A stretch of DNA of 64,000 bases from NCBI GenBank assembly GCA_963841435.1, contig CAWJCS010000003.1, positions 1,056,001-1,120,000 of the forward strand, given 5' to 3'. Below, one piece after another: positions 6,729 to 19,561 of this stretch. The DNA comes from an uncultured delta proteobacterium. GTDB taxonomy: Bacteria > Myxococcota_A > Polyangia > Polyangiales > Polyangiaceae. A program made the position numbers and the translations under genes. The first letter of the stretch is position 1. Each line of letters starts with the position of its first letter. The notes below the pieces were generated by a model. It saw nothing but the letters and a program-made list of their open reading frames with translations, was not told the DNA's origin and did not search any database.

Positions 6729-8273
6729 GTGGGCTTCCGCCAGCGAATTCTCGAACGAAGTCGGAAAGCGTTGCTTGGGCCCGCCGTCATGCGGTGGGTC
6801 TCCGACGATCGCGTGATGCGTGCGGCCGAAGGCCTGCTCGACGCGCGAACGCGCGTGCAGGCCGCCTGGACGGTGCTGAAGAACGGCCACGCCCTGCCGA
6901 ACATCGACCCCGCGCTCGACGAGACGATCGGCGAGCCCGGACCCGAGAAACCCGCGCCGGAAGTCGCGAAGGCACGCGCCAACGGCAACGGCGCCGCCCA
7001 CCCGACCCGCGGCTCCGACGACATGCACGAGTCGCTCAAGGAGCGCAACACGCTCGCGAGCATCGGGGGCAAGGACATCTTCGAGAAGTGCCGCAAGTTC
7101 ATGGCGGCGGACAACGCGCGCAAGATGGGGATCTACCCCTTCTTCCGCCCGCTCGATCTCAACGACGGGCCCGAGGCCGTGATCGACGGCCGGCGCGTGG
7201 TCATGCTCGGCTCGAACAACTACCTCGGCCTGACGACGCACCCCAAGGTGCGTGAAGCCGCCAAGCTCGCGATCGATCGCTTCGGGACGAGCATGACCGG
7301 CTCGCGCCTCGTCAACGGCTCGATGAAGCTGCACGAGGAGTTCGAGGCCAAGCTCGCCGCGTGGCTTGGCAAGGAATCGGCGCTCGTGTTCACCACGGGC
7401 TACCAGGTGAACCTCGCCACCTGCTCGGCGTTGCTCAGCAACAAAGCGAGCGTCGCCGTCATCGATCGCAACGTCCACGCCTCGCTCTACGACGGCGCTC
7501 GGCTGGGCCAGGCCGCCGGCGCACGGCTCGTTCGCTACCGCCACAACGACCCAGAGTCACTCGATAAGACGCTCGAGAAGCTCGAGGCCGAGGAAGGTGC
7601 GCTCGTCATCACGGACGGCGTGTTCAGCGCGGAAGGCGAGATCGCCAAGGTCGACGAGATCGTTCGCGTCGTGAAGGCGCACGGCGCGCGGTTGCTCGTC
7701 GATGACGCGCACGCGCTCGGAGTGATCGGCCCCGGCGGCCGCGGCACTTCGCACAGCTTCGGGGTCTCCGATCAGGTCGACCTCATCGGCGGCACATTCT
7801 CGAAGTCGCTCGCCAGTATCGGCGGCTGGCTCGTCGGCGAGCGCAAGGTGCTCGACTACATCCGTCACTTCGCGCCTTCGTTCATGTTCGCGGCCGCCGC
7901 AGCGCCGCCCTGCGTGGCCGCCGCGATGGCCGCCTTCGAGACCATGCAGGAGGAGCCCTGGCGCATCGAGAAGCTCCGGGAAAACTTCACTTACATGCGC
8001 GACGAGCTCAAGAAGCTGGGCTTCGAGCTCGGCCACACGCAAACCGCCGTGATCCCGATCTACGTTCGCCAGGATCTTCGCACGATCATGATGTGGCGCG
8101 ACCTGCTCGAGGAGCACGGCATCTACACGAACCCCTTCATCTCGCCCGGCGTGCCGCCGAAGAGCGCGATGCTGCGCACTAGCTACATGGCGACGCACGA
8201 GCGTCCGCAGCTCGATCGCGCCCTCGAGGCGTTTCGCGTGGTCGGCAAGAAGTACGGTGTGATTTCGGGCTGA
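6729..8273 (+). CDS. spt: PLP-dependent alpha-oxoamine synthase, probably serine palmitoyltransferase, with a ~100-aa N-terminal extension
   Basis: YPFFRPL, GSNNYLGL, TGSRLVNG, HASLYDG, DDAH, GTFSKS (PLP Lys); motifs resemble Spt more than BioF/Kbl; clustered with bCerS/CerR-like genes. Confidence 0.8.
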   Translation: MGFRQRILERSRKALLGPAVMRWVSDDRVMRAAEGLLDARTRVQAAWTVLKNGHALPNIDPALDETIGEPGPEKPAPEVAKARANGNGAAHPTRGSDDMHESLKERNTLASIGGKDIFEKCRKFMAADNARKMGIYPFFRPLDLNDGPEAVIDGRRVVMLGSNNYLGLTTHPKVREAAKLAIDRFGTSMTGSRLVNGSMKLHEEFEAKLAAWLGKESALVFTTGYQVNLATCSALLSNKASVAVIDRNVHASLYDGARLGQAAGARLVRYRHNDPESLDKTLEKLEAEEGALVITDGVFSAEGEIAKVDEIVRVVKAHGARLLVDDAHALGVIGPGGRGTSHSFGVSDQVDLIGGTFSKSLASIGGWLVGERKVLDYIRHFAPSFMFAAAAAPPCVAAAMAAFETMQEEPWRIEKLRENFTYMRDELKKLGFELGHTQTAVIPIYVRQDLRTIMMWRDLLEEHGIYTNPFISPGVPPKSAMLRTSYMATHERPQLDRALEAFRVVGKKYGVISG

Positions 8274-8295: not shown

Positions 8296-9030
8296 ATGGT
8301 GCGCGGCGCGCTGGTCGGGCTGTTGGGTGCGGCGCTCCTCGCCGGCTGCCAAGCGACGCTGCCGAGCTGCGACGCCGAGGTCGAGGCACCCCACGTCGAT
8401 TACGCGCTCGTCGAGTACCGCCTGAACGAGGAGACGGGCGCGCGGTGTACGAGCTCGAGCGCGAAAAGAGCCTTTCCACCTACGTCGCTGCCAAGGAGCT
8501 CGGAGCCGAAGTCGTGTTCGTCTTCAACCACCTCGAGACGGCGAACGTCACGGCAGGCTCGAGCAAGCTCGCGACCAGCAAGGTCTACCAGTCGGACGAG
8601 CACGGAGCGCGCGGCGCGCCACTTTCGCTCGACGACCAAACCCGCTCCGCATTCGTCGCGTCCACGCGCGAGGCCGCCGCCAAGTCCGTCGAGCCCGGGC
8701 GCGTCGTCGCCTTGAGCGCGGTGCTCGACTGTACGGCGATCGCCACGAGCACGGGCGAGAGCATCTGGTTTTACCGACGAACCGTCGCGAGACCGACCGA
8801 GGCGAAGCAGGGCCTGCGGCTGCTCTTCGGACGAAAGCCGGGCGGCGACTGGACACCCGCGGCGCCGGTCGAGCCCGCCGCCATCGACCAGACGGCGCCG
8901 CCCGAGGGCACGTTCGACTCCGAGCCCCGGCGACGCCTACGCCGAGGAACGGCTCGAGCTCGTTCGCAAGGGGGCGGAGCACTTCGTCGGCGCGTTCCGG
9001 AGCGGAGCGCTCCAGGAGGAGGGAGGGTGA
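8296..9030 (+). CDS. Hypothetical lipoprotein, two apparent frameshifts (~8440 and ~8913)
   Basis: GGAGG RBS and LLAGC lipobox; continues in the 8445 frame; removing one T at 8913-8914 gives EGTSTPSPGDAYAEERLELVRKGAEHFVGAFRSGALQEEGG* ending at 9030. Confidence 0.6.
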
Positions 9031-9809
9031 CCCGCGTCGCTGCCGTCGCGGCCGCGGCATGCCTCGCCGCCATGATGACGGGCGCGCCTGCCCATGCGCA
9101 GAGCGCACCGGCACCGGGTGCAGAGCTGCCGCCACTGCCACCGCCTCCGCCTCCGCCTCCGCCTCCGCCGCCCCCCGCCGCCGAGAGCCCCGGCGATTCG
9201 CCGCCGCCCGCCGCTCTGCCCAATGCCGGGCTCCAGGCTACGCCCGCTCCCCCCGTCGACGGCGCCGCTTTCCCGGTGACGCTGTCGCCGTCGGCCCCCG
9301 ACCTTGCCTGGTACCTGCCTCCCGAAGGCGAGCGCTTCGTGCCACCCCAGGCCCCCGAGCGCCGCTGGCTGGCTCACTTCGTCGCCGCCGCGCGCTTTCG
9401 CGCCATGTACATGCTCGACGCGCAGCAAGTGGAGGTCGAAGCATCGGCACGCGCCGGCATCGAGGCGATCGCCGGCGTGCTCGGCGTGGTCACGGTCGAC
9501 GGCGATCCGGTGCCGCTCGCTGGCATCGAGGCACTCGGCTACTTCGGCGTCGACGCGTTCGACGAGAACGGCTTTTTGGGTCAGGTGCTCTTGCCGAGCA
9601 TCGAGCTTTCGCTCGCTTTCGATCGCCGCTGGGTCATGCGCGCAGGCAGCGGCATCTCCGGTTTCCGTCTCACGAAGTGCCTGGGGTCGATGAGCCTGGT
9701 CGGGCAGCTGCGTATCCCGATTATCGACGTCTGGGCCGTGCCCGATAGGGACTTTCGCGACCCCCTGGTGTCGCTCGGCACGATGCTCGAGCTCGGCATG
9801 GCGCTCTGA
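9027..9809 (+). CDS. Secreted Pro-rich hypothetical protein, possibly outer-membrane beta-strand-rich
   Basis: GTG at 9027 after a GGAGG-rich RBS; signal peptide ending AHA-Q; poly-Pro linker; amphipathic C-terminus. Confidence 0.6.
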   Translation: MTRVAAVAAAACLAAMMTGAPAHAQSAPAPGAELPPLPPPPPPPPPPPPPAAESPGDSPPPAALPNAGLQATPAPPVDGAAFPVTLSPSAPDLAWYLPPEGERFVPPQAPERRWLAHFVAAARFRAMYMLDAQQVEVEASARAGIEAIAGVLGVVTVDGDPVPLAGIEALGYFGVDAFDENGFLGQVLLPSIELSLAFDRRWVMRAGSGISGFRLTKCLGSMSLVGQLRIPIIDVWAVPDRDFRDPLVSLGTMLELGMAL

Positions 9810-9934: not shown

Positions 9935-11062
9935 ATGCCCATCGAAATCCGCGAGATCCCCATCGGCGGACGCGTCGAAGGCTTCCTCGACCTGGTGGAC
10001 TACGTGTACCGGGACGACCCCTGTTACGTGCGCCCCCTCGATCTGGACATGAAGCAGCGCCTCGGCAAAAAGCACCCGTTCTTCGACCACGCCGAAGGCA
10101 CGCTATTCACCGCGCACCGCAACGGCTGGTGCGTCGGCCGCGCGAGCGCGCAGATCGACCGTGAGCACCTTGCCCTCCACAAGGACGACGCCGGATTCTT
10201 CGGCTTCTTCGACACGATCGACGACGAAGAAGTCGCAACTGGCCTCCTCGACGCCGCGGCGCGCTGGCTCAAGGCGCGCGGTATGAAGCGCATGCGCGGC
10301 CCGTTCTCGTTTTCGATCAACGAAGAGCTCGGCTGCCTCGTGGAGGGTTTCGACACCCCACCCATGATCATGATGCAGCACCACCGACCCTACCAGGGCG
10401 GGCTCATCGAGGGCGCCGGCCTGAAGCGGCTCAAGGATTTCTACGCCTGGCGTTACACCGTCGGCAAGGTGCCGCCTCGCGCCCAGAAAGCCCACGACGA
10501 AATCGAGGCGATGCCAAACGTGACATCGCGTCACATCGACATGAAGAACCTCGATGCCGACGTCCACACGGTGATGGACATCTTCAACGACGCCTGGCAG
10601 GACAACTGGAGCTTCGTCCCGTTCACCGAAAGCGAGCTGCAAAAGCTCGCGGCCGATCTACGCATGATCGCGATTCCGGCGCTCAGCTACATCACACAAG
10701 TGGATGGCGAGCCGGCCGCGGTGGCCGTGGCGCTGCCGAACCTCAACGAGCTCATCAAGGACCTGCACGGCAGCCTGTTCCCGGTCGGGCTTCCCAAGCT
10801 GCTCTGGCGACTGAAGGTCGTCGGGCCGAAGACCGCGCGCCTGATCATCCTCGGTATCAAGCGAAAGTTCCGCAGCCAGCGAAAGTACGCCGGGCTCAGC
10901 ACGTACCTCTACACGAAGATGAACCACACCGGTCGTGACCTCGGCTTCGAGTGGGGCGAGCTTTCCTGGACCGACGAGGACAACGGCCCCGTGAACGTGG
11001 CGATCAAGTTCATGGGCGGCAAGATCTACAAGCGGTACCGTGTCTACGAGCGCGAGCTCTGA
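9935..11062 (+). CDS. GNAT-fold N-acyltransferase, bacterial ceramide synthase (bCerS)-like
   Basis: GFFGFFDTIDD, RGPFSFSINEELGCLVEGF, IFNDAWQDNWSFVP, ELSWTDEDN, YKRYRVYE; adjacent to Spt. Confidence 0.75.
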   Translation: MPIEIREIPIGGRVEGFLDLVDYVYRDDPCYVRPLDLDMKQRLGKKHPFFDHAEGTLFTAHRNGWCVGRASAQIDREHLALHKDDAGFFGFFDTIDDEEVATGLLDAAARWLKARGMKRMRGPFSFSINEELGCLVEGFDTPPMIMMQHHRPYQGGLIEGAGLKRLKDFYAWRYTVGKVPPRAQKAHDEIEAMPNVTSRHIDMKNLDADVHTVMDIFNDAWQDNWSFVPFTESELQKLAADLRMIAIPALSYITQVDGEPAAVAVALPNLNELIKDLHGSLFPVGLPKLLWRLKVVGPKTARLIILGIKRKFRSQRKYAGLSTYLYTKMNHTGRDLGFEWGELSWTDEDNGPVNVAIKFMGGKIYKRYRVYEREL

Positions 11063-12043
11063 ATGACGGTCCTCGTTACGGGTGCCACGGGCTTTCTGGG
11101 CTCGCACGTCGTGGAGCAGCTCGCGCGCTCCGGGCGCGCGGTTCGAGCGCTCGCGCGAAAGACGAGCGATACGCGGTTTCTGGTCTCGCTGGGCGTGGAG
11201 ATCGCCGAGGGCGCCATCGAGGATCGTGACGCCGTGGCGCGCGCCGCCCGCGGCGTCACCGGCATCGTGCACGCGGCGGGCCTCGTCAAGGCGAGGTCAC
11301 CCGAAGAGTTCATGCGGACCAACCACGGCGGCACGCAAAACCTGCTCGAAGCCGCGCTCGAGGAGCCGGCGCTCGAGCGTTTCGTGCTGGTCTCGAGCCT
11401 ATCCGCGCTGCGCCCGAGCGACGGCAGCGGCACCCCCATCCCCGAAGATGCCGAGCCCCACCCCGTCACCGAGTACGGCAAGAGTAAGCTCGCGGCGGAG
11501 CACGCCGCGCGCGCGCTCGAAGGCCGCATCCCGATCACGATCGTGCGACCGCCCGCGATCTACGGCCCGCGCGACCGCGAGATCCTCGCGTTCTTCAAAT
11601 CGATGAAGCTCGGCATTTTGCCGCTGCTCGGCTCGACCCAGAACAAGCTCAGCATGATCTACGGCAGCGACTGCGCCGCGGCTTGCATCGCAGCGCTCGC
11701 AGCGCGACTACCGAGCGGAACGGCGCTGCACGTCGACGACGGCCAGGTGCACACCATGCAGGAGCTCATCGAGCGAGCGGAAGCCGCCATGGGCTCGCGC
11801 GCGCGCTTGAGATTCCATCTACCGCGCCGGCTCGTCGAAACGGCGGCGCTCGGCGCCGAGCTCTACGGGCGTGCGACGAACCGCGCCGTCATGCTCACTC
11901 GCGACAAATGCAACGAGCTCTTCGAGCAGTGGGTCTGTGACGGCGCGCGAGCCAGGGGGCTGCTCGGCTGGCAACCCGAAGTTCGCTTCGCGGACGGCAT
12001 CGAGCGGACCGTGCGCTGGTACCGAGAAGCGGGCTGGCTGTAG
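11063..12043 (+). CDS. NAD-dependent epimerase/dehydratase (extended SDR), candidate ceramide reductase CerR
   Basis: TGATGFLG, YGKSK catalytic motif, RPPAIYGP; starts immediately after the bCerS-like stop. Confidence 0.75.
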   Translation: MTVLVTGATGFLGSHVVEQLARSGRAVRALARKTSDTRFLVSLGVEIAEGAIEDRDAVARAARGVTGIVHAAGLVKARSPEEFMRTNHGGTQNLLEAALEEPALERFVLVSSLSALRPSDGSGTPIPEDAEPHPVTEYGKSKLAAEHAARALEGRIPITIVRPPAIYGPRDREILAFFKSMKLGILPLLGSTQNKLSMIYGSDCAAACIAALAARLPSGTALHVDDGQVHTMQELIERAEAAMGSRARLRFHLPRRLVETAALGAELYGRATNRAVMLTRDKCNELFEQWVCDGARARGLLGWQPEVRFADGIERTVRWYREAGWL

Positions 12044-12145
12044 CGCCCGACCGGCCCCGCAGCCGCGTTCCACCGTTGCTGGACCGCGAATGCCAAACGA
12101 GAAACGTTTGACTCTGAAGGATCCCCGGGGGAGCTACTTTCGCAT

Positions 12146-12178
12146 CCGTCACCAGCTCGTCACGCGTCCGTCACGCAT
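12146..12178 (+). promoter_or_regulatory. Pho-box-like site: three 11-bp-periodic direct repeats
   Basis: CCGTCAC (12146), TCGTCAC (12157), CCGTCAC (12168), exactly 11 bp apart, just upstream of the phoU-pst operon. Confidence 0.75.
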
Positions 12179-12216
12179 TGACGGTGGAAGTAAGCGAAAA
12201 GGACCGCTGCGCCGCC

Positions 12217-13308
12217 ATGACACACTTCGAAGAGACCCTCGAGCGTGACGCGGCGCGCATTCGGCGCAAGATGCAGGAGATGGCCGGCCTGTGCGGCATG
12301 GCGCTCGAAGGCTGCCTGAAGGCGCTCGCGGAGAAAAATCGCCAGCTTGCCTACTCGGTCATCATGCGCGACCAGCGCATCGACGAGCTGGAAAAGGAAA
12401 TCGACAGGCTTTGCCTCGAGTTCATCGTGCGCCAACAACCGGTCGCCGGCACGCTGCGTTTCGTGTACGCAACGATCAAGGTGAACTCGGAGCTCGAGCG
12501 CGTCGGCGACTACGCCGAAAGCATGGCCCGGCAAATCCTCTTGCTCTCGGAGCTCGACGTGCGGGTTCCCATCGAGCGCTTCCGGGAGATTGCGGGGCTC
12601 GCGATCCCCATGTTCCACGGCGCCGTCGAAGCGTTCCTCGCCCAAGACCCCGATCGGGCTCGTCGCACGATGGAGAGCGAGGAACCGGTCGATCGACTGC
12701 GCCATGACCTGAGCAGCGATCTCATCCAGATGCGCCAGGACCAGGAAATTCCGCTCGAGGCGCTCGCGCCGCTGATGGCAATCGTCAACCGCTTCGAGCG
12801 GGTCGCCGATCAGGCGAAGAGCATCTGTCAGGAAGCAATCTACGTGAGCACGGGGGAGTACCTGAAGCACTCGGGTAGCGAGGTCTTTCGTGTGCTGTTC
12901 GTCGACGAGCACAATGCCTGTCGCAGTCAAATGGCGGAGGCCGTCGGTATCGCGCTCGGGCAGCCGAAGTTCGTGTTCACGAGCGCAGGGCTCGACCGCG
13001 AGCCAGTCGACCCCGGCACCATCAGGATCCTCACGGAACACGGCATCGACGTTTCACATCTCACGGCGAAAACCGTCGCCCAGGTGCCGCACCTCGACCA
13101 CTACCAAATCATCGTGGCGCTCGCAAAAGAGGCCCGACGCGTGTTTCCGCCGCCTCCGACCAAGGCCGTGTGCCTCGACTGGAGTATGCCGGATCCCTCC
13201 AAGTTGGGGGGCACGCCCGAGCAGGTTCGCGAAGCCTACGACCGAACGTACAAGGCCCTGGAAGGCTATGTCCGAGACCTCGTGGAGGCCGTCCTCGGCG
13301 ACGGCTAG
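12217..13308 (+). CDS. phoU: Phosphate signalling protein PhoU fused to an ArsC/LMW-PTP-like domain lacking the catalytic Cys
   Basis: Two PhoU repeats (DQRIDELE...QQPVAGTLR...ELERVGD; RFERVADQAKSI) then VLFVDEHNACRSQMAEA, SAG and WSMPDP. Confidence 0.9.
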   Translation: MTHFEETLERDAARIRRKMQEMAGLCGMALEGCLKALAEKNRQLAYSVIMRDQRIDELEKEIDRLCLEFIVRQQPVAGTLRFVYATIKVNSELERVGDYAESMARQILLLSELDVRVPIERFREIAGLAIPMFHGAVEAFLAQDPDRARRTMESEEPVDRLRHDLSSDLIQMRQDQEIPLEALAPLMAIVNRFERVADQAKSICQEAIYVSTGEYLKHSGSEVFRVLFVDEHNACRSQMAEAVGIALGQPKFVFTSAGLDREPVDPGTIRILTEHGIDVSHLTAKTVAQVPHLDHYQIIVALAKEARRVFPPPPTKAVCLDWSMPDPSKLGGTPEQVREAYDRTYKALEGYVRDLVEAVLGDG

Positions 13309-13321
13309 TGAAGGAAGAACC

Positions 13322-14269
13322 ATGACTAAGCAAACTTGGATTCTTGCCGCCTCGCGCGGCCTGCCGCTGGCGCGCCGCGCCGTCACCCTGGGCATCGTGG
13401 CGTTGTTGGCGGGCGGAGCCTGCAAGAAGAAGGCGGACACTTCTCAGGAAAGCGCTGGGGCGACCCCGGACAAGCTCTCGGTCCAGAACATCGGGTCCGA
13501 CACCATGGTGAATCTCGCCCAGGCCTGGGCGGAGGAGTACGCGAAGGTGGAGCCGAACGTCTCCGTCGAGGTCTCCGGTGGCGGCTCCGGCGTCGGGATC
13601 GCTGCGCTCATCAACAAGACAGCCGACATTGCCAATGCGAGCCGCAAGATGGAGCCCGAAGAGATGGAGAAGGCCAAGGCGAACGTCGGGGCGATGCCGA
13701 CGGAATTCTTGGTGGGCTACGACGGGCTCGCGGTCTACGTGAACAAGGACAACCCGCTCGATAGCATCAGCATCGAGGAGCTCGGCGGCATCTATCGTGA
13801 GGGCGGCACGATTTCACACTGGGCGCAGGTCGGCGTCGCAGGCATCCCCGGCTCGAAAAGCGACGACATCATCCGCATCAGCCGCCAGAACAACTCGGGC
13901 ACGTATGCGTATTTTCGCGAAACCGTCGTCGGCAAGGGGCATGACTACAAGCCTGGGTCTCTCGACATGAACGGCTCGAAGGACGTCGTCGAGCAGGTGG
14001 CGAAGACCCCCGGCGCCATCGGCTACGCCGGTCTCGGCTATGCGACGCACGAGGTGAAAATCCTCAAGGTTTCCGCGAAGAAAGGCGAACCCGGCGTGCT
14101 GCCGAGCATCGCCACCGTGCACGACAAGAGCTATCCGATCTCCCGACCGATGTTCATGTACACGCCGGGGGCACCCGCGCCACACGTCAGGAAGTACATC
14201 GAGTGGACCATGTCACCCGCTGGTCAGAAGATCGTGGAGGAGACGGGGTACGTCCCGCTGCTGCGGTAG
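13322..14269 (+). CDS. pstS: Phosphate ABC transporter substrate-binding lipoprotein
   Basis: Signal ending AGGAC; GSDTM, GGGSGVG, SRQNNSGTY, YPISRP. Confidence 0.93.
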   Translation: MTKQTWILAASRGLPLARRAVTLGIVALLAGGACKKKADTSQESAGATPDKLSVQNIGSDTMVNLAQAWAEEYAKVEPNVSVEVSGGGSGVGIAALINKTADIANASRKMEPEEMEKAKANVGAMPTEFLVGYDGLAVYVNKDNPLDSISIEELGGIYREGGTISHWAQVGVAGIPGSKSDDIIRISRQNNSGTYAYFRETVVGKGHDYKPGSLDMNGSKDVVEQVAKTPGAIGYAGLGYATHEVKILKVSAKKGEPGVLPSIATVHDKSYPISRPMFMYTPGAPAPHVRKYIEWTMSPAGQKIVEETGYVPLLR

Positions 14270-14275
14270 GCCACC

Positions 14276-15244
14276 ATGGAGGAACGCGTCGTGGATGTGT
14301 CCCCTCAGTCGGCCCCGGGTGCTAGCTCGGTAGCCGTGCGCCCGCGCCCCCACGTGCGGCGACGGCCGTGGGAGCAGCCACTCGAGATCGGCCTCGAGTG
14401 GCTGATTCGCGTGTGCGGCGTCAGCGCCATCCTCTTCGTCTTCAGCATCTTCTTCTTCGTCTTCCGTGAAGGCGTCGGCATGCTGTTCGGCGGGCTCGAC
14501 CTCACGCAGTTCTTCTTCTCCACCGAGTGGTACCCGACGTCGGTGAGGCACGTCCGCTACGGCGCGCTCGCTCTGATCGTCGGAACCTTCAGCGTTACGT
14601 CGCTCGCGATGTTCATCGCCGTGCCGTTCGGGCTCGGCGGAGCCGTGTTCGTCTCCGAGTTCTGCGGCCCGCGCCTGCGCGAGACACTGAAGATCGTCAT
14701 CGAGCTCCTCGCCGCCATTCCCTCGGTGGTCTGGGGCTTCATCGGGCTCTCGGTCATGAATCCCCTGATTCAGGAGCTCTTCCACGTACCCGTGGGGCTC
14801 AACGTGCTGAACGGTGCGCTCCTGCTCGCTCTGATGAGCGTTCCCATCATGGTGAGCATCGGCGAGGACGCGCTCAAGGCCGTGCCCGATTCGTATCGCG
14901 AGGCTGCGCTCGCGATGGGCGCCACGCGCTGGCAGGCCGTCTACCGCGTGCTCCTGCCAGCGGCGCGCAATGGCCTGCTCGCCGCCGTCCTGCTCGGCGT
15001 CGGGCGCGCCGTCGGCGAGACCATGGCCGTCCTGATGGCGACCGGGCACGCCATCAACATCCCGAAGAGCATCTTCGATCCGGTCCGGACCCTCACCGCC
15101 ACCATCGCCGCCGAGCTCGGCGAGGCGTCCGTGGGCTCCGCACACTACCAGGTGCTGTTCGTCATCGGCATCCTGCTTTTCACCATCACTTTCGTCGTGA
15201 ATCTCGTCGCCGACCTCGTGGTCAAGGGCACGGGCAAGGAATAG
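14276..15244 (+). CDS. pstC: Phosphate ABC transporter permease
   Basis: IELLAAIPSVVWG, REAALAMGATRW, GRAVGETMAV. Confidence 0.95.
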   Translation: MEERVVDVSPQSAPGASSVAVRPRPHVRRRPWEQPLEIGLEWLIRVCGVSAILFVFSIFFFVFREGVGMLFGGLDLTQFFFSTEWYPTSVRHVRYGALALIVGTFSVTSLAMFIAVPFGLGGAVFVSEFCGPRLRETLKIVIELLAAIPSVVWGFIGLSVMNPLIQELFHVPVGLNVLNGALLLALMSVPIMVSIGEDALKAVPDSYREAALAMGATRWQAVYRVLLPAARNGLLAAVLLGVGRAVGETMAVLMATGHAINIPKSIFDPVRTLTATIAAELGEASVGSAHYQVLFVIGILLFTITFVVNLVADLVVKGTGKE

Positions 15245-15247
15245 CGC

Positions 15248-16132
15248 GTGTTCACCGAGACTCCCCACATCAAGAGGAAACGCCGCGAGGAGCGGCTGAT
15301 GCACGTCATCCTCGGCCTGATGGCGGGCGCCATGGTCGTGCCGCTCGTGGTCATCGTCACCTACCTCCTCGTGCAGGCGTGGCCGCTCCTGTCGCTCGAT
15401 TTTCTGCTGACGAACCCGGCGGGAGGCATGCGCCGAGGCGGCATCTGGTCCGCGCTGCTCGGCACCTTCTACCTGGTGACGACGTCGCTCTTGATCGCGG
15501 CGCCCATCGGCGTGCTCGCTGCCGTCTACCTGAACGAGTACGCGAAGAAGAACGTCTTCACGCGCATCATCAACCTCGCCGTCGTGAACCTCGCGGGGGT
15601 GCCCAGTATCGTTCACGCCCTGTTCGGGCTCGGCGCGTTCGTGCTCTTCGCGGGCATCGGCCGCTCGATCCTCGCGGCCTCGCTCACGCTGGCGATCATG
15701 ACGTTGCCCGTGATCATCGCCAGCACGAAGGAGGCGCTTTCCTCCGTCCCCATGTCGTTCCGTGAGGCCTGCTGGAACGTGGGGGCGACGCGCTGGCAGA
15801 CGATCCGCGGCATCGTCCTGCCGAATTCGATCAGCGGGATCCTCACGGGCGTCATCCTGCAGGTGTCGCGCACGGCAGGTGAAACGGCTCCCATCATGTT
15901 CACCGGCGCCGTTTTCTTCAAGAAGATCCCGGAGGGTGACCTCTTTGCCTACAACCTGACGGATCAGTGCATGGCCCTCTCCATGCATTTGTTCACGATC
16001 ACGACCCAGGTCACGGAGGCGCCCCACGCGCTTCCCTATGCCACCGCCGTCGTGCTGCTCGGCGCCGTGTTGCTCGTCAACGCCGCGGCCATCTTGGTGC
16101 GAGTCAAGCTGCGCGCGAGGAAGAAGTGGTAG
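15248..16132 (+). CDS. pstA: Phosphate ABC transporter permease
   Basis: AVYLNEY, LAGVPSIVHALFG, SRTAGETAP. Confidence 0.95.
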   Translation: MFTETPHIKRKRREERLMHVILGLMAGAMVVPLVVIVTYLLVQAWPLLSLDFLLTNPAGGMRRGGIWSALLGTFYLVTTSLLIAAPIGVLAAVYLNEYAKKNVFTRIINLAVVNLAGVPSIVHALFGLGAFVLFAGIGRSILAASLTLAIMTLPVIIASTKEALSSVPMSFREACWNVGATRWQTIRGIVLPNSISGILTGVILQVSRTAGETAPIMFTGAVFFKKIPEGDLFAYNLTDQCMALSMHLFTITTQVTEAPHALPYATAVVLLGAVLLVNAAAILVRVKLRARKKW

Positions 16133-16905
16133 AAGCCGCCCCCGCTCACGGGCGCGCGAAGATCGCGGTGAGCGATCTTCGCCTGAGATACGGGGACCGA
16201 GAGGTGATTCACGGCATCTCGTTCGACGTCGAACCGAACGAGATTTTCGCCGTCATTGGACCCGCCCAATCCGGCAAGAGCTCGCTTTTGCGGTGCTTGA
16301 ATCGGACCATCGAGTTCGAGCCCGAGGCGCGGGCCTCGGGCTCGATCCGCATCGACGGTCTCGACGTCTCCATGGTGAAGAACGTCTACGAGCTCCGGCG
16401 CCGCGTGGGCATGGTGGCTCCGCTGCCCGTCGGCTTGCCCCTCAGCATTTACGAGAACGTCGCGTTCGCGCCGAGGGCCTCCGGCCTACGCGACAAAGCC
16501 GAGCTCGACGCCCTGGTCGAACGCTGCCTCAGGCAGGCCGCGCTGTGGGACGAGGTGAAGGATCGACTGCATTCGCTCGGTACCAAGCTCTCCGGTGGGC
16601 AGCAGCAGCGGCTCACGATCGCGCGCGCGCTGTCGCACGAGCCCGAGATCCTGTGTCTCGACGAGTTCTCGATTGCCATCGATCCCGTGACCACGATGCG
16701 CATCGAAGAGGTCCTGAAAAAGCTCAAGCAGCAGATGACGATCGTGCTCGTCACCAATCTGGTCCAGCAGGCTCGCCGGCTCGCGAGCCACACCATGTTC
16801 CTGTGGAACGGCGAAATCATCGAGGTGGGGACGACCGATCTGTTGTTCTCGGACAAGCCGAAGGACCAGAGAACCTACGACTACGTGAACGGCATCTTCG
16901 GATGA
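16126..16905 (+). CDS. pstB: PstB-like ATPase 1 (degenerate Walker A, Q-loop and H-loop; intact LSGGQ)
   Basis: GPAQSGKS, GMVAPLP, LSGGQQQRL, LDEFSIAIDP, VTNLVQQA, TYDYVNGIFG. Confidence 0.88.
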   Translation: MVEAAPAHGRAKIAVSDLRLRYGDREVIHGISFDVEPNEIFAVIGPAQSGKSSLLRCLNRTIEFEPEARASGSIRIDGLDVSMVKNVYELRRRVGMVAPLPVGLPLSIYENVAFAPRASGLRDKAELDALVERCLRQAALWDEVKDRLHSLGTKLSGGQQQRLTIARALSHEPEILCLDEFSIAIDPVTTMRIEEVLKKLKQQMTIVLVTNLVQQARRLASHTMFLWNGEIIEVGTTDLLFSDKPKDQRTYDYVNGIFG

Positions 16906-17712
16906 TGGCGGCGCTACGTTCCACCGCGCCGCCGCCGGAGACGCTCGAGGGCGGCGGGATCGAGACCCGAGAGCTGTCGCTGTGGTACGCCGACTTTCAG
17001 GCGCTCCACGCCGTGACGCTCAGCATGAAGCGCGGCCTCATCACCTCGCTGATTGGTCCGTCGGGCTGCGGCAAGACCACGCTTCTACGCTGCTTCAACC
17101 GCGTCAACGAGCGCTACGGCTACGTGCGCACGACCGGCGAGATTCGCATCCTCGACAAGAATATCTACGACCCGGACGTTTCACTCGTCGAGCTCAGAAA
17201 GTCCGTGGGCATGGTGTTTCAGCGCCCGAACCCGTTGCCCATTTCCGTGTACGAGAACGTGGCGTTCGGGCTGCGCATCCACCATCCGCGCTCGGAGCTC
17301 AAGAAATCGCACGTCGACGAGGCCGTGGCCAAGGCGCTCACCGAGGTCGGTCTGTTCGACGACCTCAAGGACCGCCTGTCCAGCCGTGCCACCGACCTAC
17401 AGCTCGAACAGCAGCAGAAGCTCTGCATCGCGCGCCTCTTGCCGGTCCAGCCGAAAATCATCCTCATGGACGAGCCGTGCTCGGCGCTCGAACGTCGAGG
17501 GGACGCGCGCCATCGAGGAGCTGATGTGGACGTTGCGAGGCCGCTACACGATCGTCATCGTGACGCACAACATGGCCCAGGCGCGGCGCGCCAGCGACGA
17601 ATGCATCTTCATGTTGCTCGGCGAAATCATCGAGCACCGGCGCACCGAGGATCTGTTCCTGACGCCCTCGGACCCGCGCACGGCGGAGTACGTCGAAGGG
17701 CGCTACGGCTGA
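16902..17712 (+). CDS. pstB: PstB-like ATPase 2 (degenerate signature motif), frameshift at ~17491 (probable sequencing error)
   Basis: GPSGCGKT, GMVFQRPNP, LQLEQQQKL, MDEPCSAL; removing one A at 17491-17492 gives SALDVEGTRAIEE...VTHNMAQA...YVEGRYG*. Confidence 0.88.
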
Positions 17713-17746
17713 GCCGCTCGCGAAGCCGGCCGCAACGCCTCGATGC

Positions 17747-18172
17747 TCACTCTCGACCTGGAAGTTCCAGCGCCGCGCGACCCAGACGGGCGCGCAGCGC
17801 GTTGACGATACGAAGCACGCGGGGACGCGCGATGAGCCGGCGCTCGAGGCGCCGCTTGCCCGGAAAATCGAGCAGCACGATGCCGAGGACGATGGTGAGG
17901 ATCCCCTGCCCCGGCAGGATCAACATCAGAACCCCCGCGACGACGAGCACCGCTCCGAGCACGTTTTTCAGCACGCGCCGCGCCATCCCGAGCGGGCTCG
18001 CCGCGTCCGCCCGGGGCTCCTCGCGCACGAGGTAATTCGCGGGCAGCCGGGCGACAACGAGTGGCACGACGAGCGCGCCGAGCAAGAACGCCAGCCCCGA
18101 TAGCACGGCCAGGCCCTCGAGCCTCCCCGGGGTGAGGACGCTCCGAACGGCGACCAGGAGACGCTCGGGCAA
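17747..18172 (-). CDS. PGPGW-family small membrane protein
   Basis: KNVLGAVLVVAGVLMLILPGQGILTI motif. Confidence 0.75.
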   Translation of the reverse strand: MPERLLVAVRSVLTPGRLEGLAVLSGLAFLLGALVVPLVVARLPANYLVREEPRADAASPLGMARRVLKNVLGAVLVVAGVLMLILPGQGILTIVLGIVLLDFPGKRRLERRLIARPRVLRIVNALRARLGRAALELPGRE

Positions 18173-19561
18173 TCAGCTTCGGCTGCCGCGGTGGGCTTTG
18201 GCGGCGGAAATGGCGGCGAGCGCCGCGCGAGCCTTGTTCCAAGTCTCCTTCGCCTCGAGCTCCGGACGACTGTCGGCGACGATGCCGGCCCCGGCGGTGA
18301 CCTCGAAGCGATCGTCGGCAATGACCACCGTGCGGATCGCGATGGCGAGGTCGAGATCGCTGCTGCGCGTCACGTAGCCGATGGCGCCTCCGTAAACGCC
18401 GCGTGGTCGGGTTTCGAGCTCGCGGATGATCTGCATGGCGCGCACCTTGGGCGCGCCGGTGAGCGTCCCCGCGGGGAAGGTGGCGCGGATGACGTCCCAG
18501 GCGCCGAGGTGCGGTGCGAGCTCGCCGCGCACCTCGCTCACGATGTGCATGACGTGACTGTAGCGCTCCACGAGCAGGCGCTCGGGCGTCGTGACGGTGC
18601 CCGCTTTGGCGACGCGGCCGACGTCGTTGCGGGCGAGGTCGATGAGCATGACGTGCTCGGCGCGCTCCTTCGGATCGGACAGCATTTCCTCGGCGAGGCG
18701 CGTGTCTTCGTCCGCCGTGCGACCGCGGCGCCGCGTGCCGGCAATCGGGCGAAGCGTGACCCCGCCGTGCTCCGAGCGCACCAGCGTTTCCGGGCTCGCG
18801 CCGGCGACGGCCACGGCCGGCGCGCCGGCGTGAGCCGGCAGCTCGAGCAGATACATGTACGGAGCGGGCGAGAGGACGCGCAACGCGCGATACACCTGGA
18901 AGGGGTCGGCGCCGCCCGTGGGGACCGAGAAGGTGCGCGCAGGAACGATCTGGAACGCGTCACCCGCGCGGATGTACTCCTTCGCTCGCTCGACGGCGAC
19001 ACCGTACTCCTGGTCGCTCATCGTGACGTCGATGCCCGCCGGCATGGCCGTCGGGTCCGGCGGCGCCACCAGATCGAGCCCGGGCGCCGACACGAGGTCG
19101 TGCTCCGCCCGCTCGAGATCGGCCTGATCCGGCGCGGCGATCACGGCCGTGTGCTCGAGGTTGTCGAACACCACCACGGTGAAGTCCCGCATCAAGCGCG
19201 CCACGGGGCGACGATCGGAATCCGGCCAGGGCTCGACCTTCGTCGCATAGTGGACGATGTCGTACGGGATCATGCCGACGGCGGCGCGCGCGAAGCGGGT
19301 CGCGACGTCCGCGTCGGGCGGCTCACCCGTCGTGAACGCCTCGGACAGCCGCGTGAAGGGATCCACGCCCCGCTCGCCGTAGTGGGTGATGAGGGCGCGC
19401 GGCCGATACCCGAGAATCGAGTAGCGGCCCCAGCGCTCGCCGGGCACGACGCTCTCCAGCAAGAAAGAGCCGGCGTCGGAACGATTGCGAAGCCCCTGGT
19501 AGGCACCTACCGGGGTAAGCCCGTCGACGACCAGGGTCTTCTTGTGCATCGGCCCCGGCAA
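18173..19561 (-). CDS. trpE: Anthranilate synthase component I (chorismate-binding)
   Basis: FLLES, GRYS, YIRAGDAFQIV, ASPE, RPIAGTRRRG, KERAEHVMLIDLARND, FPAGTLTGAPKVRAM; start could be 19549. Confidence 0.9.
   Translation of the reverse strand: MPGPMHKKTLVVDGLTPVGAYQGLRNRSDAGSFLLESVVPGERWGRYSILGYRPRALITHYGERGVDPFTRLSEAFTTGEPPDADVATRFARAAVGMIPYDIVHYATKVEPWPDSDRRPVARLMRDFTVVVFDNLEHTAVIAAPDQADLERAEHDLVSAPGLDLVAPPDPTAMPAGIDVTMSDQEYGVAVERAKEYIRAGDAFQIVPARTFSVPTGGADPFQVYRALRVLSPAPYMYLLELPAHAGAPAVAVAGASPETLVRSEHGGVTLRPIAGTRRRGRTADEDTRLAEEMLSDPKERAEHVMLIDLARNDVGRVAKAGTVTTPERLLVERYSHVMHIVSEVRGELAPHLGAWDVIRATFPAGTLTGAPKVRAMQIIRELETRPRGVYGGAIGYVTRSSDLDLAIAIRTVVIADDRFEVTAGAGIVADSRPELEAKETWNKARAALAAISAAKAHRGSRS

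Follow-up and report, generated by a model that had tools for sequence, protein, structure and literature searches.

PhoU-L, a PhoU protein fused to an arsenate reductase-like domain, as a candidate regulatory subunit of an accessory phosphate transporter with an unequal ATPase pair

We analysed a 64,000-nucleotide stretch of DNA from an uncultured bacterium of the family Polyangiaceae (contig CAWJCS010000003.1, positions 1,056,001 to 1,120,000), here called the window, with positions counted from its first letter. The gene under study, phoU-L, encodes a PhoU protein joined to a C-terminal domain (C-domain) with the fold of arsenate reductase (ArsC) and low-molecular-weight protein tyrosine phosphatase (LMW-PTP). 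The C-domain has lost the catalytic cysteines of these enzymes, and the gene opens a phosphate transport (pst) operon in which two ATPases, PstB1 and PstB2, lack different catalytic motifs. The reading we favour, and to which we give roughly even chances, is that PhoU-L would be a dedicated cytoplasmic regulatory subunit of an accessory, Pho-regulated PstS-PstC-PstA-PstB1-PstB2 system, with a C-domain that is non-enzymatic and structural or allosteric across the family.

The open reading frame (ORF) runs on the plus strand from 12178 to 13308. A TTG at 12178 offers a longer start that homologues do not use; the ATG at 12217, where they begin ('MTHFEE...'), gives a protein of 363 residues. This product matched the Pfam family PhoU (PF01895) in two stretches (E 1.9e-36) and LMWPc (PF01451) over residues 226-352 (E 4.5e-12). 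It passed the NCBIfam model phoU_full (TIGR02135, 153.1 bits, cut-off 130.25) and missed the cut-offs of two ArsC models (TIGR02691, 64.5 versus 174.3 bits; TIGR02689, 55.7 versus 157.6 bits). An AlphaFold2 model built from an alignment of 132 homologues had a mean predicted local distance difference test score (pLDDT) of 95.4 and a predicted template modelling score of 0.76, with residues 3-212 modelled as an all-helical bundle (pLDDT about 98), a short linker of lower confidence, and residues 224-360 as an alpha/beta domain. Foldseek aligned the N-terminal part with the PhoU structures 1t72, 4q25 and 2i0m at target template modelling (TM) scores of 0.93-0.95, and the C-domain with the ArsC structures 8p6m, 8p5n, 1jl3 and 1ljl at 0.82-0.89 (0.87-0.89 for 8p6m and 1jl3). 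Arsenate reductases ranked above tyrosine phosphatases among the Foldseek matches to the C-domain, and its best sequence matches in the PDB were also arsenate reductases (E 2.4e-14 to 1e-6). All 120 best matches in a 90%-clustered database (65-88% identity; those with names were Myxococcota/Polyangia) contained the same two Pfam families, and the fusion is thus not a chance event.

A HMMER alignment of the C-domain with Synechocystis ArsC (2l17, E 2.4e-14) placed 'FVDEHNACRSQMAE' opposite 'FVCKRNSCRSQMAE', so that D230 of PhoU-L takes the position of the leading Cys in the C-x5-R loop. Further downstream, 'ALAKEA' stands opposite 'SLCGCG', and both Cys of that segment are missing; residues 298-318 contain no Cys, and C319 falls outside the resolving-pair segment. 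Retained are N233, C235, R236, S237 and D326-P327, the last within 'MPDP' opposite 'LEDP' of 2l17. A first-pass annotation, made from the DNA letters and ORF translations, had proposed two PhoU repeats followed by an LMWPc/ArsC-fold domain with Asp for the nucleophilic Cys, no downstream redox Cys pair, and the N, R, S and W..PDP residues in place, citing strings that we located at residues 225-242 (RVLFVDEHNACRSQMAEA), 298-314 (IIVALAKEARRVFPPPP) and 322-327 (W..PDP). Pfam, the structural model, Foldseek and the 2l17 alignment bear out each of these points. Having neither the nucleophilic Cys nor the resolving pair, the C-domain cannot work as an arsenate reductase or LMW-PTP of the thiol-based kind; judged from the sequence, the known thiol mechanism of arsenate reduction is closed to PhoU-L.

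phoU-L is the first of six co-directional genes, followed by pstS, pstC, pstA, pstB1 and pstB2. PstB1 and PstB2 share about 35-42% identity and were aligned with the genome's own canonical PstB, encoded on contig 5, which scores 361.8 bits on TIGR00972 (cut-off 343.2). The same cut-off is missed by PstB1 (277.9 bits) and by PstB2 (323.6 bits for the orthologue in L007, one of the two closest Myxococcota loci). In PstB1, MVAP replaces the Q-loop MVFQ and VTN replaces the H-loop VTH, with LSGGQQQRL intact. In PstB2 the Walker A, Q-loop, Walker B and H-loop motifs are intact and the signature reads LQLEQQQKL, without the SGG of LSGGQ. Among the 52 orthologues aligned for each protein these motif states never varied, nor did T209-N210-L211 of PstB1 (52 of 52). 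In dimers of ATP-binding cassette (ABC) ATPases, an ATP site forms where the Walker and H-loop face of either subunit meets the signature motif of its partner. What PstB1 lacks (the Q-loop Gln and H-loop His) and what PstB2 lacks (LSGGQ) belong to the same composite site, so that one of the pair's two ATP sites is of the consensus kind and the other is degenerate.

The pstB2 frame of the window is broken in two after 'DEPCSAL' by one extra A near 17491 (17488-17495), where the window reads 'CTCGAACGTCGAG' versus 'CTCGACGTCGA' in two same-genus genomes. The extra base is probably an assembly error, to which a real pseudogene could be an alternative. Among Logan contigs over pstB2, most of which were short conserved ABC fragments from other organisms, one of 236 letters (run X1, depth 2.7) covered 17425-17661 (237 positions) with no mismatch and one gap somewhere within; it is suggestive of one base fewer than the window has.

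Scanning one genome per species yielded at least 80 fusion loci, with labels from about a dozen phyla: Myxococcota, Verrucomicrobiota, Acidobacteriota, Fibrobacterota, Calditrichota, Deferribacteres/KSB1, Eisenbacteria, Planctomycetota, Gemmatimonadota, Rhodothermia and Pseudomonadota among them. The pseudomonadotal loci came from Accumulibacter, Dechloromonas, Chromatiaceae, Sedimenticolaceae/Thiodiazotropha, tubeworm symbionts and Magnetococcales. Every one of the 80 loci examined had one of two gene orders, phoUL-pstS-pstC-pstA-pstB1-pstB2 (type I, L006-L050) or pstS-phoUL-pstC-pstA-pstB1-pstB2 (type II, L051-L085). Both pstB types were present in 64 of the 80; 15 others end at a contig edge and one (L059) has a gap of 522 N, so the co-occurrence with a double pstB envisaged in the first-pass annotation extends to all loci of sufficient length. 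None of the 80 operons carried a fusion cut back to PhoU alone. In a FastTree phylogeny the family splits by the two operon types with support of 100, and phyla are mixed within the tree. The fusion was found in 6 of 18 other genomes of the same genus and in 0 of 12 that represent other families of the order; completeness reaches 98-100% in several of the genomes without it. This patchy occurrence and the mixture of phyla point to gain, loss and transfer. The six-gene operon is widespread and apparently unstudied. No description of a PhoU-ArsC/LMWPc fusion was found in the openly accessible full-text literature, including passages of 10.1101/870428 and PMC12096839.

To follow the old active site through the family, we drew on a 50%-cluster library, in which 190 proteins matched at E <= 1e-30. 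The 150 listed, with the query, gave 106 proteins of 335-460 residues; P0159, P0179 and P0200, which had no alignment through the C-domain, were left out. The remaining 103 representatives and 78 locus-derived proteins, two truncated ones having been dropped, made up 181 full-length fusions. Position 230 was D in 149, E in 7, S in 10, G in 7, C in 5 and another residue in 3, an acidic residue thus occupying it in 156 of 181. The P-loop Arg was found in 44 of 181 and the Asp of the DP (Asp-Pro) motif, D326, in 59. The type I clade (83 rows) kept D230 in 60, R236 in 40 and D326 in 54; in the type II clade (98 rows) the numbers were 89, 4 and 5. Position 230 remained acidic in 94 of the 98 type II rows, where the Arg and the DP Asp are gone, and the strand there often ends in D-E-D-N. 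Within the type I tree the R236 state changed at least 17 times and the D326 state at least 23 times. Even the query's own clade of five rows (support 97) includes P0121, with D-L-T at 230/236/326, and P0122, with D-A-H. Given such scattered losses, neither the oxyanion-binding Arg nor the general acid can be essential to a family-wide function.

Closer to the query the picture is more uniform. Among the 120 close relatives, a set whose limited divergence gives it little power, D230 was kept in 117, N233 in 114, C235 in 117, R236 in 106, S237 in 118, and D326 and P327 in all 120. The first-pass annotation had left it to homologous fusions whether Cys-to-Asp is conserved; the replacement is conserved, with the Cys surviving in only five of the 181. 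Its retained oxyanion residues are a feature of the close relatives (R in 106 of 120, D326 in 120 of 120) and not of the family as a whole, given the counts for R236 and D326 above. The mean top-residue frequency over these 120 sequences was 0.78 in the C-domain versus 0.80 in the PhoU part, and L227, F228, A240, G276, W322 and L355 were conserved at 90% or more among 132 sequences. A C-domain conserved like its PhoU partner and folded with confidence is under selection and not a decaying appendage.

Three fusions at the base of type I (P0154, P0220 and P0253) keep C-x5-R, the 'LC...C' pair and PDP, in a tree rooted at its midpoint that leaves polarity unproven. L048, located in a six-gene operon, keeps the C, R and DP. 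Scores on the ArsC model fall from 128.9 bits for P0154 through about 100 for P0220 and P0253, 86.2 for L048 and 64.5 for the query to none for L061 of Accumulibacter. A metagenome scan with P0154 did not recover its own contig; its matches were mostly standalone ArsC genes. In two metagenomic loci (L133:3700-8061 and L137:3578-8123), pstS-pstC-pstA-pstB is followed by a standalone arsC and then by phoU, and both arsC genes are intact, with C-x5-R and the Cys pair, giving an unfused association with pst-phoU. Pst admits arsenate, which makes an ArsC attached to PhoU a sensible starting point. In our reading, the family goes back to a PhoU-ArsC fusion whose thiol chemistry disappeared early and which was retained to serve another purpose.

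The genome (7.78 Mb, 6 contigs) also carries a more conventional Pho apparatus. A standalone PhoU of 228 residues (210 bits on phoU_full) is encoded elsewhere, not beside pst genes. On contig 5, a canonical Pho locus (L182, 579754-585200, minus strand) comprises two tandem PhoB-like (OmpR-family) regulators, a PAS-HisKA-HATPase kinase, pstC, pstA and pstB; no pstS match was found within the 12 kb covered. The kinase there is 53% identical to the one that follows pstB2 in L007. The canonical PstB, the PhoR-like kinase, the two PhoB-like regulators and the standalone PhoU make the fusion operon an accessory second system. The contrast drawn in the first-pass annotation with an 'E. coli PstB-PhoU-PhoR model' was accordingly overstated, as the genome holds those components too.

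Upstream of phoU-L, the motif GTCAC stands in three direct repeats, one every 11 bp, which look like a candidate Pho box of this organism and its genus. The pattern GTCAC-N6-GTCAC matched three times in the window versus 0.15 expected, two of the matches overlapping within the element at 12148-12174, and 26 times genome-wide versus 2 for a reversed control; genomic context was established for 6 of the 26. One match (contig 3, 1377038-1377053) precedes the standalone phoU by about 210 nt. Of three on contig 5 (584418-584433, 585185-585200 and 585319-585334), one lies directly upstream of each phoB-like gene and one about 130 bp beyond, on the other strand. The element, with variant repeats such as GTAAC or GTTCAC, precedes the fusion in five same-genus genomes and in L007, and is not present in L006. 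Of 73 loci from other taxa, only 8 had a strict GTCA-N7-GT(C/T)A ahead of the operon (0.33 versus a background of 0.02 per kb), so the element holds for the genus and L007, not for the whole family. Taken at face value, the element makes induction of the operon under phosphate limitation probable.

As a regulatory subunit, PhoU-L would act through its PhoU part on the PstB1/PstB2 dimer as a brake or signal coupler, by analogy with canonical PhoU on PstB. The C-domain, originating from a thioredoxin- or glutaredoxin-type arsenate reductase, would now be a non-enzymatic regulatory module, perhaps one that docks or positions the unequal ATPase pair or a Pho signalling partner. Most lineages are without the P-loop Arg and the general-acid Asp, hence the common function is most likely structural or allosteric; in the query's clade the intact pocket of N233, C235, R236, S237 and D326 around Asp230 may additionally bind a tetrahedral oxyanion. 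A complex prediction for the C-domain (L007 orthologue, residues 214-364, from an alignment of 52 rows) with PstB1 and PstB2 of the same locus gave 0.00 and 0.00 against a mark of 0.32, and weighs neither way. Several points tell against the proposal, in which contact of PhoU-L with PstB1, PstB2 or PhoR is putative. The acidic residue at 230, persisting after the Arg and the DP Asp have gone, is unexplained by pure docking and hints at a chemical or ligand role. In the close clade the pocket (R 88%, N 95%, S 98%, D326 100%) stands above the domain mean of 78%, which fits a ligand site. The pstB2 frameshift, if real, could mean that the operon is inactive in this organism. Finally, the counts over 181 rows mix representatives with locus proteins, include some duplicates (P0125 and L036 are identical) and draw on relatives that are not independent.

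The first-pass annotation had favoured a sensor. Restricted to the clade with D230, R236 and D326, this becomes a reading in which the pocket would bind cytoplasmic inorganic phosphate (Pi) or arsenate without turnover and, via PhoU, shut the importer (trans-inhibition) or signal Pi sufficiency. All of N233, C235, R236, S237 and D326-P327 are present in the query and are mostly kept in its 120 close relatives, and R236 and D326 tend to be kept or lost together in type I (2x2 counts 33, 7, 21, 22; Fisher p = 0.002, uncorrected for relatedness). The nearest relatives of the C-domain are arsenate reductases, which with the standalone arsC of L133 and L137 and the three basal fusions that retain full ArsC residues suggests that an arsenate or phosphate link to Pst is ancestral. 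Yet the Arg is absent from 137 of 181 fusions and the DP Asp from 122. R236, with its repeated changes in type I, is missing not only from P0121 and P0122 but from 14 of the 120 relatives at 65% identity or more, and across the whole type II clade (Accumulibacter, Thiodiazotropha, Planctomycetota and others) this operon persists with the pocket gone. Placed in the middle of the P-loop, an Asp carboxylate may, moreover, itself fill the anion hole. We consider a sensor of this kind an unlikely main function here. Equally doubtful to us is a bolder form of the idea, in which the D230/R236/D326 clade would possess a transporter-borne receptor of intracellular Pi or leaked-in arsenate that trans-inhibits the asymmetric Pst, and the acidic residue at 230 would underlie an anion site free of thiols and proof against oxidation, or a phospho-acceptor.

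The same acidic position, the best-conserved feature of the active site (156 of 181) and part of an acidic D-E-D-N cluster in type II, could instead point to an enzyme in which Asp230 serves as a nucleophile, forming an acyl-phosphate, with R236 and D326. The C-domain would then be a slow phosphatase, or a phospho-acceptor, whose target would be a small phospho-compound or a protein of Pho signalling. Enzymes of the haloacid dehalogenase superfamily carry an Asp at the end of strand 1, and a Cys-to-Asp mutant of PTP1B reportedly keeps weak activity. The Arg and general acid are nevertheless missing from most family members, and of the explanations considered this one seems to us the least probable. 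Only slightly better placed, and still improbable, is that the C-domain is a tolerated leftover of the PhoU-ArsC fusion with no present function. The stepwise decay of ArsC features along the tree and the repeated loss of R236 and D326 are what such a relic would leave behind; its retention at full length in about a dozen phyla, a conservation close to that of the PhoU part, a pLDDT above 90, near-invariant core and loop positions and the lack of any PhoU-only truncation in the 80 operons argue otherwise.

PhoU-L resembles canonical PhoU in its two repeats, helical-bundle fold and pst linkage, and differs from it in the extra ArsC-fold domain of 150 residues, in being encoded first or second in the operon and not last, in its pairing with two unequal PstB proteins, and in sharing a genome with a standalone PhoU. 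With the ArsC enzymes of Synechocystis (2l17), Bacillus subtilis (1jl3), Staphylococcus aureus pI258 (1ljl) and Deinococcus indicus (ArsC2, 8p5n/8p6m) it shares the fold, the P-loop N, C, R and S, and the DP motif; Asp for the nucleophile, no resolving Cys, the PhoU fusion and a score below cut-off set it apart. In STYX-type pseudophosphatases the nucleophilic Cys is replaced and the pocket partly kept. The C-domain of PhoU-L is likewise presumed to be non-catalytic and regulatory, and differs in belonging to the LMW-PTP/ArsC subfamily, in its Asp replacement and in its fusion to a bacterial transporter regulator. Heterodimeric ABC ATPases with one degenerate site are known, and importers such as MetNI and ModBC are trans-inhibited via ligand-binding regulatory domains. 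The complementary loss of motifs in PstB1 and PstB2 is like that of the heterodimers, here in a Pst importer; unlike in MetNI and ModBC, the putative regulatory domain sits on PhoU and not on the ATPase, and ligand binding by it is putative. Enterococcus faecalis has adjacent pstB1 and pstB2 genes in one pst operon, with unequal roles reported for the two (PMC12096839). Compared with that Firmicutes tandem, the pair described here, at about 35-42% identity, is distinct in that each PstB lacks different motifs, which jointly disable one site.

The coupling of Pst to phosphate sensing by PhoU is, to our knowledge, a long-standing question, and we know of no established cytoplasmic Pi sensor, if there is one. 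The fusion amounts to a natural experiment, in which PhoU has been welded to a former oxyanion enzyme and tied genetically to an ATPase pair with one dead site. Its carriers include polyphosphate accumulators (Accumulibacter and Dechloromonas) and chemosynthetic symbionts (Thiodiazotropha and the tubeworm symbionts). Because the family forms a graded series, from apparently intact PhoU-ArsC to fully degenerate forms, its natural variants make ligand sensing directly testable. Should the C-domain only dock, it would still represent a new regulatory subunit architecture for ABC importers. The system could thereby make the mechanism of PhoU, and cytoplasmic Pi sensing, approachable by experiment.

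Table 1. Features of the phoU-L operon in the window.
Feature	Position	Strand	Basis or remark
Pho-box-like element, three GTCAC direct repeats, 11-bp period	12148..12174	+	43-69 nt upstream of ATG
phoU-L (PhoU fused to ArsC/LMWPc-like domain)	12217..13308	+	363 residues plus stop
PhoU part, residues 1-212, two PhoU repeats, helical bundle	12217..12852	+	Pfam, TIGR02135, Foldseek
ArsC/LMWPc-fold domain, residues 226-352, without Cys nucleophile and resolving Cys pair	12892..13272	+	Pfam, 2l17 alignment, Foldseek
Remnant P-loop, D230-E-H-N-A-C-R236-S237	12904..12927	+	2l17 alignment
D326-P327, ArsC/LMW-PTP general-acid DP position	13192..13197	+	2l17 alignment
pstS, PstS-family phosphate-binding protein	13325..14269	+	PBP_like_2 E 2.8e-42; TIGR02136 251.3 bits versus cut-off 206.6
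pstC, permease	14276..15244	+	BPD_transp_1; position conserved in related loci
pstA, permease	15248..16132	+	BPD_transp_1; position conserved in related loci
pstB1, degenerate Q-loop and H-loop, intact LSGGQ	16093..16905 (start codon provisional)	+	ABC_tran, alignment
pstB2, degenerate signature, frame split near 17491	16905..17712	+	Alignment; PstB model matches in two frames

A scan of 11900-18300 returned no sigma-70 promoter, and terminator-like matches there were at chance level. In the two closest Myxococcota loci, a gene for a PhoR-like histidine kinase of 600 residues follows pstB2 directly on the same strand (L007:13491-15293 and L006:6535-8343); tblastn at E < 1e-10 found no such kinase in the 64-kb window.

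Upstream of the operon, 6729-8273 encodes a serine-palmitoyltransferase-like alpha-oxoamine synthase (NF047600, 448.7 bits, below the cut-off of 640), 9935-11062 a protein of 375 residues that matched no Pfam or NCBIfam family, and 11063-12043, directly upstream of the operon, a protein of the NAD-dependent epimerase/reductase family. This trio resembles what we take to be bacterial ceramide-synthesis clusters. Between the synthase-like gene and that for the 375-residue protein, in DNA of 70% GC with many overlapping ORFs, lies a candidate ORF (8445-9809) whose product would be rich in Ala and Pro and contain a run of about 15 prolines.

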